Shown: positions 12,594 to 25,719 of the stretch, piece after piece | How the letters are laid out: every line of letters begins with the position of its first letter | Position numbering within the stretch: the stretch's first letter is position 1 | Source: an uncultured Bacilli bacterium | GTDB taxonomy: Bacteria > Bacillota_I > Bacilli_A > RF39 > UBA660 | Length of the DNA stretch: 49,683 nt | Assembly: GCA_944336815.1 (NCBI GenBank) | Contig: CALVLG010000001.1 | Location: 1-49,683 of the forward strand | Reading direction: 5' to 3' | The notes under the pieces: model-generated | The model's database searches: none | What the model was told of the DNA's origin: nothing | What the model saw: only the letters and a program-made list of their open reading frames with translations | Position numbers and translations under genes: made by a program

Positions 12594-13103
12594 TTAATTG
12601 ATTTTATTATATTCACGGCATTTTTTTTCTAATAATATAAAATTACAACATCTTTTTTTTATTCTTTCATCTAGCGTATTATTTTTATATTTATTATATA
12701 AATTAAAGGCTTTACCTTTTACATTTTTAATGTTTTTATTTAGCCATAATAATTGCGTTTTTAGTAAGTTTTGCCATTTTAATTCGGATGTGTTCTTTGG
12801 GGTGGATTTTAAGTCTAATAATTCATAATTTTTTTGAGTAATTGGTATCATATTATTAAAATTAACAACCCCTAAATTTCCCTTATCAATTTTGATGAAA
12901 TCTAAATTATTTTTCATGTGTATATGTTTAATTTTAGGACTTGATAAAGGTGCAAAATATTCGAAATTATCAACAACAAATAAAATGCCTATAAATGGTC
13001 TCATTTCTTTAGAGCCGGCATTATATGCCACTTTGTTATCAAACTTTCTTAAATAATCACAATAATTTGAATCAACTTTTACAATTTTAAAATTTCTAAT
13101 CAC
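12594..13103 (-). CDS. toxN: Type III toxin-antitoxin system toxin, ToxN/AbiQ-family endoribonuclease
   Basis: 169 aa with a GTG start 6 nt after AGGTGA. The blocks YLRKFDNKV, RPFIGILF...YFAPLSSPK, LGVVNFNNMIPI, LLDL and CNFILLEKKCREY align with the ToxN/AbiQ blocks I recall (YLKEFDDKV, AFIGIVL...YLAPLTSPK, LGLINLKFMIPI, LLDL, CNFSLLEEKYRDF). The cognate repeat array lies upstream. Confidence 0.9.
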   Translation of the reverse strand: MIRNFKIVKVDSNYCDYLRKFDNKVAYNAGSKEMRPFIGILFVVDNFEYFAPLSSPKIKHIHMKNNLDFIKIDKGNLGVVNFNNMIPITQKNYELLDLKSTPKNTSELKWQNLLKTQLLWLNKNIKNVKGKAFNLYNKYKNNTLDERIKKRCCNFILLEKKCREYNKIN

Positions 13104-13140
13104 GATACATCACCTAATGTAATTATAGGCTATTTTTAAT

Positions 13141-13172
13141 CAAAAGAAAAGATTAGAGTATGCTCTCTAATC
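13141..13172 (-). terminator. Intra-operonic terminator between the antitoxin repeats and toxN
   Basis: On the - strand GATTAGAG-AGCATA-CTCTAATC (8-bp stem, + coordinates 13151-13172) is followed by TTTTCTTTT. It occupies the same position as the terminator that sets the toxI:toxN ratio in characterised ToxIN loci. Confidence 0.6.
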
Positions 13173-13285
13173 ACTTTTTTAATTTCCATATAACGGCTGG
13201 AATCACCACTTTTTTAATTTCCATATAACGGCTGGAATCACCGCTTTTTTAATTTCCACTTAGAGCTGGAATCACTCGCTTTTTT
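13169..13285 (-). ncRNA. toxI: Type III antitoxin RNA (ToxI/antiQ-like): 3.3 tandem 35-nt repeats
   Basis: Units read on the - strand:
- AAAAAAGCGAGTGATTCCAGCTCTAAGTGGAAATT (13285-13251)
- AAAAAAGCGGTGATTCCAGCCGTTATATGGAAATT (13250-13216)
- AAAAAAGTGGTGATTCCAGCCGTTATATGGAAATT (13215-13181)
- partial AAAAAAGTGATT (13180-13169)
The period of 35 is not a multiple of 3 and there is no ORF. The array is on the same strand as toxN and immediately upstream of it. Confidence 0.8.
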
Positions 13286-18637: not shown

Positions 18638-20684
<2,047 letters not shown>

Positions 20685-20686
<2 letters not shown>

Positions 20687-21458
20687 ATAATGTTAGTTGT
20701 TCTTTTCTTTCTAAAAGAATTTGTTCTATTTGAATTAATATGTTTGTCATAGTTTGATACCATTGCTCACCAAAAAATATTTTAGCTATTTGCAGTAATT
20801 CTTGATTATTAGTCATATATAAAGCGAAGAAATTAGCAAATTGTTCATCAAATGATAAATAATAGTTTGTTTTGTCTTTTTGATGATAATAATTATAAGG
20901 ATGAGAATATGGTAGGGTGAATGTTTGCCCATCTTTTGTTTTAAAATTGTTGACACCTAAATATATACTAGAGATTATATCTGATAAGGGAGCTAAGATA
21001 GCTTTGTTTTTAGAATTGCATATAGCTATTATTAGGGTTTTAAAATTGGCTTCTTTGTATAATTCATTATTTAAAGTGAAGTTTAGATTGGCCGCATTTT
21101 TTATATGTGCTTGTGTTTCTTTATTAAAATTTTCGAGATTATTAACAGGAATTTTTAAGGTGTTAAATAGATAATGACCAATTTCATGAAGAGATGCGAG
21201 ATTATCTGCTTTAGGATCAATTTCTAAAGCGTTAAATGTATATAAATAATGAGAACCATTTTTTGATGGGAAAAATTGAATAGTATCTCTTGATAATAAA
21301 AAGTTGGTAATTATATTTTGTCCAATTTCGTCTGTATAGGGATAAATAGTTGAAAATATTTCCCATAATTTTTCAATTGTTTCGGTATTATCACCTAAGG
21401 GTGTATTTGGTGGGAAAACAAGTTTGGTAAAAAAATCATTTTTGTATTCTTCAGTCAT
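20685..21458 (-). CDS. Hypothetical protein with HExxH motif (putative Zn-metallopeptidase-like)
   Basis: 257 aa with a single HEIGH motif (LASLHEIGHYLFN). There is no signal peptide or TM helix. It lies 9 nt downstream of trmB on the same strand. Confidence 0.45.
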
Positions 21459-21467
21459 AAGAACTCT

Positions 21468-22118
21468 CTAACTTTCAAAAATGGCATCAAGATAAAAAAT
21501 TGGTCGGCCTTCTTTATAATATTGTTTTTCATAATTTGTCATGATATTAGGAATTTTATTTTCATCATGATGTAAATCTAAACTTACTCTTTTAAATGTA
21601 TACCAATAGTTAGATAAACTTTCTAAGGAATAAGCAAATAATACTTTATTATCCGTTTTCAAGATAATATGTTTTTTCTTTTTAAATATTTTATCATAAA
21701 GTTTTAAATAGCTTTCATGTGTAAATCTTTTCTTTTCATCAATTTTTTTAGGCCATGGTTCACTAAAGGTAAGATATATTGTATCTATTTCTTTGGCAAA
21801 TATTTTGTCTATTTCTCTGGCATCTATACATATTAATTTTAGGTTTTTAAGATTTAAGTTTTCTAGTTTTTTAATACCATTTACCATTTGGGAATCATTT
21901 ATTTCTAAACCGATGAAGTTGCGGTTTGGATAAGTTTTAGCCATTTCAATAATAAAATCGCCTCTTCCCATCCCAAGTTCTAAATCAATAGGATTGTTGT
22001 TATTAAAAATTTCATGCCATTTTCCTTTATAATTTAAAGGATTATTTATGACATATCTTGAATTTTTAACTATTTGATCTGCATTTTTAATTTTAATATA
22101 TTCCATTTTTTGCCTCAT
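21468..22118 (-). CDS. trmB: tRNA (guanine-N7)-methyltransferase TrmB
   Basis: SAM-binding DLELGMGRGDF, IGLEI, and FSEPWPKK (the DPWPK-type motif). The alternative start is ATG at 22106 (MEYIK), preceded by GAGG. Confidence 0.85.
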   Translation of the reverse strand: MRQKMEYIKIKNADQIVKNSRYVINNPLNYKGKWHEIFNNNNPIDLELGMGRGDFIIEMAKTYPNRNFIGLEINDSQMVNGIKKLENLNLKNLKLICIDAREIDKIFAKEIDTIYLTFSEPWPKKIDEKKRFTHESYLKLYDKIFKKKKHIILKTDNKVLFAYSLESLSNYWYTFKRVSLDLHHDENKIPNIMTNYEKQYYKEGRPIFYLDAIFES

Positions 22119-22185
22119 TTCTTTTATTATTTTAGCAAATATTTATTTAAAAGTCTTTGTTTTTTATGTGAAAATTTGATTATAA

Positions 22186-22284
22186 AGTAAAGTGGTTCGA
22201 AAAATCGCCAAAAATGATAAAAAAGTGGTTCGAAAAATCGCCAAAAACAGTAAAAAAGTGGTTCGAAAAATCGCCAAAACATTG
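22186..22284 (+). repeat. Three tandem 33-nt direct repeats (candidate repeat-RNA or operator array)
   Basis: The units are:
- AGTAAAGTGGTTCGAAAAATCGCCAAAAATGAT
- AAAAAAGTGGTTCGAAAAATCGCCAAAAACAGT
- AAAAAAGTGGTTCGAAAAATCGCCAAAACATTG
A 24-nt core is identical in all three. A candidate promoter (TTGTTT-18-TATAAA, 22157-22186) would start transcription at the first unit. The array ends 43 nt before the ATPase ATG. Confidence 0.85.
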
Positions 22285-22327
22285 CTTTTTCTTTTTTGTT
22301 ATGTTATATTTTTTATGGTGATGTTAT

Positions 22328-23749
22328 ATGAAACGCTCTTTTTGGAATGATTTAGAACAGTGGTACAGTGGAGATATGCAAATGCCTTTAATGGTAATAG
22401 GGGCAAGACAAGTAGGAAAAACTTATTTAATTGATAAGTTTTGCAAGAGTCATTTTAAAAAGTATTGTTATATTAATTTGATGCAAGATCAAGATTTTGT
22501 TCATGCTTTTCATACTTTACCAGATTTTGCGTCAAAAGTATTTTATTTGGAGTCAAAATATAATGTTAAACTAGATGATAAAGAAGTTGTTTTGTTTGTA
22601 GATGAGGTACAAGAAAGTGAAGAATTTATTGAGTCTTTAAAGTTTTTTTGCGAAAGTGATAAAAAATATAAAATTATTTGTGCTGGCTCTTTATTAGGGG
22701 TTAAATTAAAAAGAGATTTTTCAAGTTCGTTTCCAGTCGGTAAAGTAGTGATCAAATATATGTATCCAATGAGTTTTCCAGAGTTTTTAGCAGCGACGGG
22801 AAATGACCGATATATAAAATTAATTCAAGAGAGTTTTATGAATGATAAACCACTTATAGAATCATTACATAAAATTCTTCTGGACTTTTACCATCAGTTT
22901 TTATTTCTTGGTGGAATGCCCGAGTGTATTTTATCTTTTGTAAAAAACAATCAAGATTTTATTTTAATGGATCATAATATCATTTCGAATATTATTCAGT
23001 CTTATTTTAATGATATGGGTAAATATACTTCTCAAAAAAATGAGTCATTACGCATATCTAGAATTTATCAAAATATTCCTTCGCAACTGGCAAAAGAAAA
23101 TCAAAAGTTTACTTTTGCAAAAATTGATAATAAGGATAATCGAAAAAGAGATTATATTACTGCTGTAGACTGGTTACTTGCTAGCAATTTGATTCTTCCT
23201 TGTTATGAAGTTACTAATCCAGTATTTCCAGTTTTGGGATATGTCAATTATGAAAATTATAAATTATATATGAATGATACTGGTATTTTGTGCTCTATGT
23301 TGCAAGTAAAAGATCATGAAGTTTTATTTGATGGTGATTATTCTTATAAAGGTGTGTTAACTGAAAATTATGTAGCTAGTGAGCTTTATAAAAATGAATT
23401 TCCTTTGCTTTATTGGACAAGAAAAGGTGAGAATAAAGCAATGAGTGAAATTGATTTTTTGATTCAGTTAGATAGCAATGTTATTCCTGTTGAGGTAAAG
23501 GCTAATCATAATACCCAATCTAAAAGTTTGATGGTTTATAGAGAAAAGTATCAGCCACCATATATGATTAGAATTTCTGCGAAAAATTTCGGTTTTGAAA
23601 ATAATATTAAATCTGTTCCATTATATGCTGTTTTTTGTATGAACGATTTAGTTAAATTAGAAAAAGAAAAATCACAAGAAAAAATGCGTCAGCAAAAAGA
23701 GAATATACAAAAAAAGCAAAAGGAAATTGACAAATTTTTAAATGAATAG
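22328..23749 (+). CDS. COG1373-type AAA+ ATPase with C-terminal DUF4143 / PD-(D/E)xK nuclease-like domain
   Basis: Walker A GARQVGKT and Walker B VLFVDEVQ. The C-terminal GVLTENYVASEL ... SEIDFLIQ ... VIPVEVKA gives a D...E.K nuclease-type motif. A Lys/Glu-rich coiled tail follows. Confidence 0.75.
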   Translation: MKRSFWNDLEQWYSGDMQMPLMVIGARQVGKTYLIDKFCKSHFKKYCYINLMQDQDFVHAFHTLPDFASKVFYLESKYNVKLDDKEVVLFVDEVQESEEFIESLKFFCESDKKYKIICAGSLLGVKLKRDFSSSFPVGKVVIKYMYPMSFPEFLAATGNDRYIKLIQESFMNDKPLIESLHKILLDFYHQFLFLGGMPECILSFVKNNQDFILMDHNIISNIIQSYFNDMGKYTSQKNESLRISRIYQNIPSQLAKENQKFTFAKIDNKDNRKRDYITAVDWLLASNLILPCYEVTNPVFPVLGYVNYENYKLYMNDTGILCSMLQVKDHEVLFDGDYSYKGVLTENYVASELYKNEFPLLYWTRKGENKAMSEIDFLIQLDSNVIPVEVKANHNTQSKSLMVYREKYQPPYMIRISAKNFGFENNIKSVPLYAVFCMNDLVKLEKEKSQEKMRQQKENIQKKQKEIDKFLNE

Positions 23750-23755: not shown

Positions 23756-23764
23756 ATGAACAGG

Positions 23765-23975
23765 AAATGCGTTGAAAACTATAGTAGTTATAGAAATTCT
23801 TTTTTAGAGAGATGAGGGATGGTGTGACTCATTAGAGATTCTATAATGAAGAAAAGAGTGGGAGCATAAGCGTAATTCTGCGTTAAAGAAAGAAAGTGCA
23901 TGGCAACATGAATTAAGGTGGTACCGCGGATTTAACAGTTATTCGTCCTTTAGAGGAAGATAACTGTTTTTTATT
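23765..23975 (+). promoter_or_regulatory. T-box riboswitch leader (probable Lys specifier) with terminator/antiterminator
   Basis: AGAGA bulge and a distal loop GGATGGTGTGA in stem I. The canonical T-box is AATTAAGGTGGTACCGCG (23912-23929). The terminator is AACAGTTAT...ATAACTGTT plus a T-run (23933-23975). The specifier-loop region TGAAGAAAAGAG contains AAA/AAG followed by a purine. Confidence 0.8.
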
Positions 23976-23989
23976 TTGAAGGAGATAAT

Positions 23990-24256
23990 ATGGAAACACC
24001 TACTTGTAAAATTGCCTGGATTATTAAAACTTCAGCGATTGTGATAATATCAGTTAGTATATTTTTGGCTTTGTTTTTTTGCTTATTTGGCGCTATTTCT
24101 ATTTTAGATGCTATTCTTTTAATTATAGGCGGGATTGTGTCTTTTGCTATTTTATATGGTTATGCACATATTATTCAAGGAGTACAAGATCTTGTTTATT
24201 TAAAAAAATTGGAATATGAAGATGATGAAGAAGACGAAGAGGAGGAAGAAAAATGA
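23990..24256 (+). CDS. Small 2-TM membrane protein with polyacidic C-terminal tail
   Basis: 88 aa with RBS GGAGA. Two hydrophobic helices are followed by YEDDEEDEEEEEK. Its stop overlaps the lysS start (ATGA), implying translational coupling. Confidence 0.5.
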   Translation: METPTCKIAWIIKTSAIVIISVSIFLALFFCLFGAISILDAILLIIGGIVSFAILYGYAHIIQGVQDLVYLKKLEYEDDEEDEEEEEK

Positions 24257-25719
24257 GAGAATTTAGTGAACAAGAATTAGTAAGAAGAGAAAAATTAAAA
24301 AATATTAAAAATCCTTATCCTGAGAGGTTTGAGGTAAATACGGAAATAGCTGAGGCTAAAAATTTAGAAGATGGTACAACTGGTATTCGAGTTGCTGGCC
24401 GAATTGTTTTAATGCGTAAAATGGGTAAGATGAGCTTTTTAACTATTGGAGATATAGGTGGTCGAATTCAGATTTCAGTTAAAATGGATATGATTGGGGA
24501 AGAGGCTTATCAAGATTTCAAACAAAACTATGATTTAGGTGATTTTATTGGTGTTTTAGGTGAAGTCTTTACAACACATACTGGCGAGAAAACAATTCGG
24601 GCGAGTGAAATAACTTTTTTAGGAAAAGCATTGAAACCTTTACCAGAAAAATTTCATGGTTTAGAAGATGCCGAAATGATTTATCGTGAACGTTACGTTG
24701 ACCTTATTATGAATGAAGATGAAAAGAAAAAGTTTTTATTTCGCAGTGCATTTATTAAAGAATTAAGAAATTACTTAAATGATAAAGGCTATGTGGAAAT
24801 TGAAACACCTATTTTAAATAATAAACCAAGTGGGGCTACAGCAAAACCTTTTATTACCCATCATAATGCTTTAGATATTGATTTATATTTAAGAATTGCG
24901 CCAGAAACATATTTAAAAAGAGCTATTGTGGGTGGTTTTACCAAAGTGTTTGAAATTGCTCGTTGTTTTCGAAATGAAGGAATGGATACTACACACTTAC
25001 AAGATTTTACAATGATTGAAGGATATGGAGCTTACTTAAATTATAAAGATAACATGGTTTTCTTACGTGAACTTTTACAAAGTATTATTTTAAAATTATT
25101 TGGCACACTTAGTATTCAAGTGGGCGACAAAATGGTTGATTTAAGTGGCGAATGGCCAAGTGTAAGTTTTAGAGATTTGATTTTAAAATATGCGGCGATT
25201 GATATATATGAGGAAGATACTAAAGAAAAATTATTAGTAAAAATTCGGGAAATGCATATTGAAATTGAATCAGAAGTTCCGTTAGAAAATTTAGGATATG
25301 GAAATTTAGTTGATCAATTATATAAAAAGGTGGCGAGACCTCATTTAGTTAATCCAATCTTTTTAGTAGAACATCCAATTAGTTTATCACCTTTAGCTCG
25401 AGCAAATGATGAAAATCCTAATTTAACTGATCGTTTTCAACTTGTTATTAATGGAGCCGAGATTATTAATGCGTATTCGGAATTAGTTGATCCACAAGAA
25501 CAAGAAAGACGTTTAGAGGAGCAAGCACGCTTAAAAGCTCATGGCGATGAAGAAGCAATGCCAATGGATTATGATTACATTAGTGCAATGGAATATGGTA
25601 TGCCACCTATAAGTGGTTGGGGAATGGGCATAGATCGTTTATTACAACTTTTAACAAATAGTGATAATATTAAGGACGTTGTGATGTTTCCTTTAATGCG
25701 TCCAAAGGATCAAGAGTAG
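24253..25719 (+). CDS. lysS: Lysine--tRNA ligase, class II
   Basis: OB-fold N-domain. Class II motifs are present: FEIARCFRNEG (motif 2) and GWGMGIDRL (motif 3). RYVDLI and ETPIL are also present. Confidence 0.95.
   Translation: MREFSEQELVRREKLKNIKNPYPERFEVNTEIAEAKNLEDGTTGIRVAGRIVLMRKMGKMSFLTIGDIGGRIQISVKMDMIGEEAYQDFKQNYDLGDFIGVLGEVFTTHTGEKTIRASEITFLGKALKPLPEKFHGLEDAEMIYRERYVDLIMNEDEKKKFLFRSAFIKELRNYLNDKGYVEIETPILNNKPSGATAKPFITHHNALDIDLYLRIAPETYLKRAIVGGFTKVFEIARCFRNEGMDTTHLQDFTMIEGYGAYLNYKDNMVFLRELLQSIILKLFGTLSIQVGDKMVDLSGEWPSVSFRDLILKYAAIDIYEEDTKEKLLVKIREMHIEIESEVPLENLGYGNLVDQLYKKVARPHLVNPIFLVEHPISLSPLARANDENPNLTDRFQLVINGAEIINAYSELVDPQEQERRLEEQARLKAHGDEEAMPMDYDYISAMEYGMPPISGWGMGIDRLLQLLTNSDNIKDVVMFPLMRPKDQE

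Follow-up and report, generated by a model that had tools for sequence, protein, structure and literature searches.

In the window analysed here, the whole stretch of 49,683 nucleotides (nt) from the start of contig CALVLG010000001.1 of an uncultured Bacilli bacterium, an array of three 33-nt direct repeats stands upstream of a gene for a 473-amino-acid (aa) protein in which an AAA+ ATPase is joined to a PD-(D/E)xK nuclease-like domain. The array is conserved in homologues across distant lineages, with selection on the core of the repeat only; it is restricted to the promoter region, its position is fixed relative to the predicted promoters and its orientation is variable. We propose, with a probability of about 0.55, that the repeats are an iteron-like operator array of double-stranded DNA sites, to which the ATPase itself probably binds to regulate its own gene, most probably by repression. 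From the sequences compared, what would be new is a self-operator array on an abundant and uncharacterised family; the gene family was already known as a candidate defence gene. An earlier note on this DNA had described the repeats and the gene. Its observation was partly confirmed and its interpretation partly supported, since among its alternatives was an iteron-like operator array for a DNA-binding protein, which the comparative data support.

The elements of the locus are the following.

22189..22221, plus strand: repeat unit 1, formed by the core (22189-22213, AAAGTGGTTCGAAAAATCGCCAAAA) and a variable linker
22222..22254, plus strand: repeat unit 2, formed by the core (22222-22246) and a variable linker
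22255..22279, plus strand: repeat unit 3, promoter-proximal, core only; the 25-nt perfect repeat stops 2 nt before the -35 hexamer
22282..22310, plus strand: predicted sigma-70 type promoter of the ATPase gene, with -35 TTGCTT (22282-22287), a 17-nt spacer and an extended -10 TGtTATATT (22302-22310)
22317..22321, plus strand: Shine-Dalgarno sequence GGTGA, 6 nt 5' of the ATG, kept in loci L007, L009 and L014
22328..23749, plus strand: AAA_14 + DUF4143 ATPase / PD-(D/E)xK nuclease-like protein, 473 aa (PDC-S01 in PADLOC; assigned by Pfam and PADLOC)

A repeat array conserved upstream of homologous ATPase genes

Tandem Repeats Finder, applied to the window, returned a period of 33 nt with 2.8 copies and 94% matches (22189-22279), and a repeat search delimited three units at 22189-22221, 22222-22254 and 22255-22287. 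The 25-nt core AAAGTGGTTCGAAAAATCGCCAAAA is identical in 3/3 units and the other ~8 nt of each unit vary, in agreement with the three perfect-core repeats of the earlier note; the distance between the array and the ATG, given there as 43 nt, is 48 nt when it is counted from the last perfect core, which ends at 22279. In unit 3 the last base of the 19-bp family core, GTGGTTCGAAAAATCGCCA, is 22276, 5 nt 5' of the -35 box, and the form of the family core motif in the window is GTGGTTCGAAAAATCGCC. The 19-mer core was found in 3 copies against 0.02 expected from shuffles, and no further copy was detected elsewhere in the 49.7-kb window even when 3 mismatches were allowed. Searching the exact 19-mer in the genome contig collection gave 4 single matches in unrelated phyla, a number at the level of chance.

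Other identities for the repeats were tried and rejected. A tRNA-like 3' end was discarded, the core reading GGTTCGAA...CCA without a complementary T-stem and ARAGORN finding nothing; a mini-array of the clustered regularly interspaced short palindromic repeat (CRISPR) type was discarded as well, the "spacers" having just ~13 nt. A coding repeat was excluded because a 32-nt period, which is the one present in ~40% of the arrays, is incompatible with a reading frame.

The homologues were collected by a profile scan, from which we kept the best 80 of more than 551 metagenomic matches together with 11 loci of a viral collection (27-47% identity). The array count covered 90 homologous loci of 27-99% identity, in each of which the 300 nt preceding the start codon were examined for an array. 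The earlier note had suggested a survey of homologous ATPase loci by way of refutation; arrays were found, which favours a real conserved module. The best autocorrelation lag in the range of 20-49 nt was 32 or 33 in ~58 of the 88 upstream regions, where ~6 were expected, and a periodic segment of 31-34 nt scoring at least 10 was present in 55/90 upstream regions versus 1/394 control windows from the same loci. Arrays have two (18 loci), three (23 loci), four (5 loci) or five units (1 locus), always with a spacing of 32-33 bp. Each unit is composed of a conserved core of ~19 bp and a variable linker of ~13 bp, and the identity between successive units is 0.7-1.0 over the former and 0.4-0.5 in the latter.

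With an iterative motif model we obtained a loose family motif, roughly TCnTnnGAAAAAnGTG, whose informative part is GAAAA(A)nGTG, an A-tract followed by GTG, while the 5' half differs per locus. The core is formed by two halves, a family-wide GAAAAAnGTG half (AAAATCGCC in the clade of the window) and a locus-specific one; the clade of the window carries ...GAAAAATCGCC in place of the family-wide motif. A fixed-pattern scan with GAAAAANGTG and 1 mismatch proved too strict for calling orientations, and the iterative model was used for that purpose. When each locus was searched with its own core, 97 of the pooled matches fell in the 270 nt preceding the gene and only 1 in the ~250 kb elsewhere. 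Two more distant paralogues, found in L058 and L030 and 22% identical, have no array, and the feature is therefore documented for the subfamily of at least 27% identity only.

It was also possible to see some irregular copies. At L086 (~2770-2830) two degenerate core units lie ~100 nt farther upstream, past a hairpin, and L088 has one extra copy of its own core just past the ATPase stop codon (+1307 from the ATPase start).

Among the close relatives the array was present in 10/10. L005 and L006, at 99% protein identity, and L008, at 83%, have three units and L007, at 86%, has four, and in all of them the core is unchanged, while the linkers and the surrounding intergenic DNA differ. L009 contains a 59% orthologue in the same ligA...lysS neighbourhood, without trmB, preceded by three 33-nt units with a diverged core, ATTCCCTCGAATTATCGCAAAA (also given as TCGAATTATCGC). 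Its flanking genes are 69-88% identical to those of the window, and the module was therefore vertically inherited between the two. Five more relatives with 52-58% identity, in which the gene lies after rplQ or beside trmB (two arrangements), carry arrays in 5/5 cases, with 3-4 or more units and a 33-nt period.

Some observations on individual relatives concern the array itself. In L005 (4880-4895, compared with 22214-22224 in the window) the linker is 1 nt longer, which results in a 34-nt spacing between units 1 and 2; since this strain is 99% identical, the linker length is polymorphic within the species. In L008 (660-760) a deletion fuses the region just 3' of the -35 box of the array to codon ~110 of the ATPase and removes the -10 box, the ribosome-binding site and both Walker motifs; the 5' third of the gene is lost, leaving a pseudogene behind three intact repeat units. 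In L103 (~2285-2385) a run of N, either a masked stretch or a scaffold gap, breaks an array of which at least 4 units are visible, and short-read assemblies may collapse arrays of this kind or contain too few of them.

A neutral, recent tandem duplication without function could account for a copy number of 3 versus 4 among close relatives and for the single-nucleotide difference of the L005 linker. The comparative data refute it, and we give it practically no credit: the cores remain perfect at 86% protein identity despite diverging intergenic DNA, and independent arrays of the same period precede more than half of the homologues, against the 1/394 of the controls.

Promoters, orientation and the RNA antitoxin reading

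The promoters and terminators referred to throughout are sequence predictions. The promoter at 22282-22310 had the best score in the 260 nt upstream of the gene, with a predicted start near 22316-22318, and both its position and its TGnTAT element are kept in L005, L006, L007 and L009. In 17 of the 21 low-GC loci with an array, the top sigma-70 promoter falls directly downstream of the repeats. The geometry of these low-GC loci is nearly constant, with ~24 nt from the first base of the proximal core to the start of the -35 box and 13-23 nt from the end of the -10 box to the ATG. The promoter that follows the array is TTGACA-17-TATAAT in L014, with 12/12 consensus positions, TTGATT-17-TATAAT in L010 and TTGGCA-17-TGnTATATT in L019, where an intrinsic terminator also abuts the upstream side of the array. 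In the higher-GC loci (n=12) a TAnnTTTG box, which we take to be the Bacteroidota -7 promoter element, overlaps the proximal unit in 7, follows it by 16-28 nt in 4 and precedes it in none.

The earlier note had placed the repeats in the 5' leader of the transcript. This could not be demonstrated, as the best conserved predicted promoter is downstream of the array. The promoter invoked there is the following.

22157..22186, plus strand: candidate promoter TTGTTT-18-TATAAA, weak and not conserved, in a region that must also hold the divergent trmB promoter

These boxes do exist in the sequence; the last T of the -10 is missing, the promoter scan did not list them and their position is not conserved in L007 and L008. 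No terminator-like site was found by the scan between the array and the gene (22279-22328). As for orientation, the motif is directed toward the gene in 37 of 51 loci and inverted in the other 14, and in the clear inverted cases (L053, L057, L058, L060, L064) there is no divergent ATPase gene upstream to which the array could belong.

These data bear on the type III toxin-antitoxin layout postulated in the earlier note, in which an RNA transcribed from the repeats would neutralise the ATPase-nuclease or control it, be it as an antitoxin, a regulator or a decoy. The comparison was suggested by a toxin-antitoxin repeat module 9 kb away, which is indeed genuine.

12594-13285, minus strand: complete AbiQ-type type III toxin-antitoxin locus (PADLOC AbiQ, 2.3e-36, 169-aa homologue)

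In this locus a promoter is followed by a 35-nt repeat present in 3.2 copies (13174-13285), a hairpin with a T-run terminator and abiQ, and the flanks are a 258-aa open reading frame (ORF) and a phosphoglycerate mutase gene. The resemblance of the two layouts speaks for an RNA, as do the weak promoter-like boxes at 22157-22186, the L016 locus, where a promoter-like box precedes the array, and L009, whose array begins 19 nt past the ligA stop codon without a terminator, so that read-through could transcribe it. Against it, the strong and conserved predicted promoter is 3' of the array in 17/21 low-GC loci, the terminator of L019 is right upstream of the repeats, no terminator separates array and gene, in contrast to the AbiQ locus, about one quarter of the arrays are inverted relative to the gene, and only the ~19-bp core is constrained, the linkers within the units being free to vary.

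The RNA itself was also evaluated. The folding z-score of array plus leader was -0.45, RNAalifold on 15 diverse units predicted 0 pairs and no covariation, and Rfam gave no match at gathering score on the array of the window or of 20 loci, with only chance-level matches at a permissive threshold (E 0.27-7.8). Considering that the antiQ repeats, taken as a control, likewise lacked a folding z-score signal, the missing RNA signal is by itself weak evidence, and it is the position of the promoter, the absence of a terminator and the variable orientation that carry the argument for a DNA site. Furthermore, the ATPase is not a ribonuclease of ToxN/AbiQ fold, since Pfam assigns it to AAA_14 and DUF4143, its Foldseek matches are initiator-type AAA+ proteins, and the PADLOC AbiQ model matches a different ORF. 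Membership of the type III class was rejected, none of its testable defining features (upstream promoter, terminator, ToxN/AbiQ fold, fixed orientation with whole-unit conservation) having been found, and a type III-like RNA function of the repeats is, in our judgement, very improbable.

The ATPase-nuclease as presumed binder of the array

The 473-aa ORF matched AAA_14 (PF13173, 8.6e-24) and DUF4143 (PF13635, 6.2e-27), both above the Pfam gathering cut-off, and the PADLOC model PDLC04786 (PDC-S01) covered the full length of the protein with 6.7e-137. Its motifs are listed below.

22400-22423, plus strand: Walker A, G25-T32, GARQVGKT
~22589-22612, plus strand: Walker B, D92 E93
23447-23500, plus strand: E-x-D...E-V-K nuclease motif, E374/D376...E389-V-K391

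The Walker A and B motifs and the EIDF...PVEVK-type nuclease motif pointed out in the earlier note were corroborated, as residues G25, G30, K31, D92, E93, E374, D376, E389 and K391 are invariant in 17 homologous sequences. The AlphaFold2 model built from 17 sequences reached a predicted local distance difference test score (pLDDT) of 86 and a predicted template modelling score (pTM) of 0.86. It starts with an AAA+ base and lid, to ~215, followed by an alpha/beta module (~237-315) made of a helix, a QLAKENQKF loop that is highly conserved yet poorly ordered in the model, a helix at 271-285 and a beta-hairpin; after the PD-(D/E)xK core (341-431) it ends in a long helix rich in lysine and glutamate (residues 432-472, 23621-23746). 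Among the 17 aligned homologues a C-terminal helix of comparable length is present only in the 86% relative P0002, the tail of P0061 being shorter; judging from the model, this extension could be a coiled-coil oligomerisation element. The top Foldseek matches of the model in the PDB were 2QEN (an archaeal Walker ATPase), ORC4/ORC5, Aeropyrum ORC2 (1W5T) and DnaA, followed by TnsC, RFC and Avs4, with alignments of 385-430 columns that reach well past the AAA+ core. The predicted ATPase fold thus resembles Orc/Cdc6/DnaA-type AAA+ proteins. A sequence search of solved structures with the ATPase gave P-loop noise only and no sequence-level relative.

Taking into account the fold and the array, the mechanism we propose would be as follows. 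The three 33-bp units would be double-stranded DNA binding sites phased by approximately three helical turns, on roughly the same face of the helix, with ~5 bp between the end of the promoter-proximal core and the -35 box of the promoter predicted for the ATPase gene itself. The binder would most likely be the product of the adjacent gene, with its Orc/Cdc6/DnaA-like AAA+ ATPase, a winged-helix-like module and the C-terminal PD-(D/E)xK nuclease domain. The protein would form a cooperative assembly on the phased sites and regulate transcription of its own gene. Repression would hold a nuclease that is potentially harmful to a low, set amount.

We infer the ATPase as the binder because it is the sole element common to all loci, no other gene being shared among them, and because each array pairs a private half-site with a family-wide one, as is expected if the DNA-binding module is conserved and its specificity surface varies. 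Repression is favoured since the promoters are already near consensus and since many loci have a unit that overlaps the promoter box or sits between the box and the start codon.

Several results weigh against this proposal. The promoters are predicted and not mapped, and the one of the window would leave a very short 5' untranslated region of ~10 nt. L016, with its promoter-like box 5' of the array, is an exception to the general geometry, and L081, L085 and L095 have one unit downstream of the box, so that some units are probably transcribed. About 40% of the sampled homologues have no clear array. In addition, a site centre near -50 fits activation as well as repression. With regard to the protein, a permissive Pfam search of the winged-helix-like segment returned no helix-turn-helix (HTH) family, and the AlphaFold2 model of the isolated residues 208-318 had a pLDDT of 52.6 and was unusable. 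Motif similarity was hardly related to protein domain similarity (rho 0.09-0.12 for all three domains, weak and not domain-specific), and the comparison of putative recognition helices was confounded by phylogeny.

The array could instead be the operator of a different trans-acting regulator encoded elsewhere, with the ATPase as merely the regulated gene. In favour of this, the ATPase matches no recognisable HTH family, motif and protein showed no clear covariation and HTH_3 genes lie near some loci (L101, L104, L009). Nevertheless, such nearby HTH genes are inconsistently present and no second conserved gene accompanies the module, while the array moves with the ATPase gene through unrelated contexts and several phyla-like compositions, and the locus-specific half of the core varies between loci and is kept within each array. 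We regard a separate regulator as unlikely, although it is the strongest of the alternatives.

An initiator-like protein could also use the array as a non-regulatory site. This might be an origin or iteron, a site of partition or loading, or the end by which a small mobile cassette is recognised. Such a use is suggested by the Orc/Cdc6/DnaA-like predicted fold, by the iteron-like phasing of the direct repeats, by the different positions of the gene in related genomes (after rplQ, beside trmB, between ligA and lysS) and by the homologues on 11 contigs of the viral contig collection. But the loci are found among housekeeping genes with no adjoining replication, integrase or transposase genes, the motif is only 5' of the gene and not on both flanks, the window and L009 share the module in synteny and by vertical inheritance, and the fixed geometry with respect to the -35 box suggests a role in transcription; a non-regulatory site is accordingly held to be improbable.

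A more speculative extension of the autoregulatory operator, to which we assign a low likelihood, is that the array might serve as a chromosomal docking platform for an ATP-dependent and sequence-specific assembly. The private "iterons" would then sequester or license the nuclease, a self-restraint at the DNA level comparable to an antitoxin made of DNA sites, and infection or foreign DNA with competing sites would release or activate the enzyme.

Genomic neighbourhood and relation to known systems

The segment is chromosomal, with ~30% GC and a strong leading-strand skew. The gene order is ligA (18641-20674, plus strand), a 257-aa ORF (minus), trmB (minus), the repeats, the 473-aa ORF (plus), a T-box leader and lysS (24253-25719, plus).

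21468..22118, minus strand: trmB (tRNA m7G46 methyltransferase family, Methyltransf_4), divergent neighbour, context only
23763-23953: T-box leader before class II lysS (Rfam RF00230, 108.6 bits)

The array was rejected as an element of trmB, which is missing from the syntenic L009 and lies in other positions elsewhere. The ATPase gene was seen beside trmB in three arrangements, with trmB divergent upstream (window, 21468-22118), co-directional upstream or downstream (the others being L102, 1766-2362, and L105, 3839-4504), and in L101 and L103 it comes after rplQ instead; the adjacency is either a rearrangement within one lineage or a preferred neighbourhood. The 257-aa ORF between ligA and trmB (20685-21458, minus strand) is kept in L005 and L006, is absent from the syntenic L009 and has no match in Pfam, NCBIfam or PADLOC. 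The same T-box leader was found in L007, and another T-box is located 3' of the ATPase homologue in L014, before a different aminoacyl-tRNA synthetase. Between the T-box terminator and the lysS start of the window there is an insertion of ~257 nt (23954-24256), absent from L005, a 99% identical strain, and from L007. It encodes an 88-aa ORF (23990-24256) for which two hydrophobic helices are predicted and whose tail is acidic (EYEDDEEDEEEEEK); the ORF would be under T-box control because its stop codon overlaps the lysS ATG.

PDC-S01 has been described as the fourth most common defence system, still a candidate, across prokaryotes, with ATPase and PD-(D/E)XK domains and no validation (PMC12988326), and, in rumen genomes, as the single locus found most often (PMC13356809). 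In E. coli B, one member did not protect against T4, T5 and T7 (bioRxiv 10.1101/2024.09.26.614923), and DUF4143 was placed in the PD-(D/E)XK superfamily in 2012 (PMC3424549). In the searchable literature we found no mention of repeats upstream of DUF4143, COG1373 or PDC-S01 genes, which is consistent with the statement of the earlier note that no system of this composition had been described.

For a family with no known mechanism and no validated phenotype, the private phased array is the first concrete handle. It predicts that PDC-S01 proteins bind DNA in a sequence-specific manner, in the way of initiator-type AAA+ proteins, and that their expression is tightly self-controlled; it also suggests that heterologous tests carried out without the native ~200 bp upstream, or on foreign promoters, may misreport activity. 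The array units are ready ligands for electrophoretic mobility shift assays, footprinting and structural work. At the same time, tandem repeats before a defence gene do not on their own point to a type III toxin-antitoxin system.

As a single protein-coding gene, PDC-S01 was defined by the same ATPase + PD-(D/E)XK architecture (PMC12988326; PMC3424549), and the descriptions found include no cis element, unlike the locus presented here. With the type III toxin-antitoxin systems (ToxIN, AbiQ/antiQ, CptIN, TenpIN) the locus shares a short array of direct repeats of ~33-36 nt just 5' of a candidate defence gene. It differs from them in the predicted promoter that comes after the array, the lack of a terminator between array and gene, the variable orientation and the unconstrained linkers, and in the effector, an AAA+/PD-(D/E)xK protein instead of a ribonuclease of ToxN fold.

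An analogy can also be drawn with regulators of the STAND/AAA+ type such as MalT on the MalT boxes, where an ATP-dependent oligomeric P-loop protein occupies several direct repeats upstream of a promoter, as is presumed here. MalT-type proteins are dedicated regulators of other genes with a LuxR/HTH domain, whereas the protein studied carries a nuclease domain and its sole known target would be its own promoter.

Iteron arrays accompany autoregulated Rep genes in plasmids such as P1 (RepA), pPS10 and R6K (pi), and DnaA boxes are present in the dnaA promoter. In common with these arrangements, the locus has at least 2 direct repeats at a constant spacing, phased by whole helical turns, that adjoin or overlap the predicted promoter of the presumed binder's gene; the variable copy number and the conservation of only the core of the unit are likewise those of iterons. 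In contrast to the iteron/Rep systems, the period is 32-33 bp and not ~22 bp, the protein carries a PD-(D/E)xK nuclease domain and its binding is presumed, and a replicon context was not found, as the locus is chromosomal, placed among housekeeping genes between ligA/trmB and lysS and syntenic with L009.

The archaeal Orc1/Cdc6 proteins and their origin recognition boxes (ORBs) offer a further parallel. Foldseek indicates a similar class of AAA+ fold (1W5T, ORC4/5), repeated elements of ~20 bp adjoin the gene in the way that ORBs stand beside orc1/cdc6, and the site looks bipartite, with a conserved and a variable half. ORBs, however, flank an unwinding element and are often inverted, whereas the direct repeats described here abut a promoter, and the protein has no sequence-level homology to Orc1. 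Because of the lack of a replicon context, the different period and the nuclease fusion, the locus is not a member of the iteron/Rep, DnaA-box/dnaA or ORB/orc1 classes, although it would work like these three arrangements.

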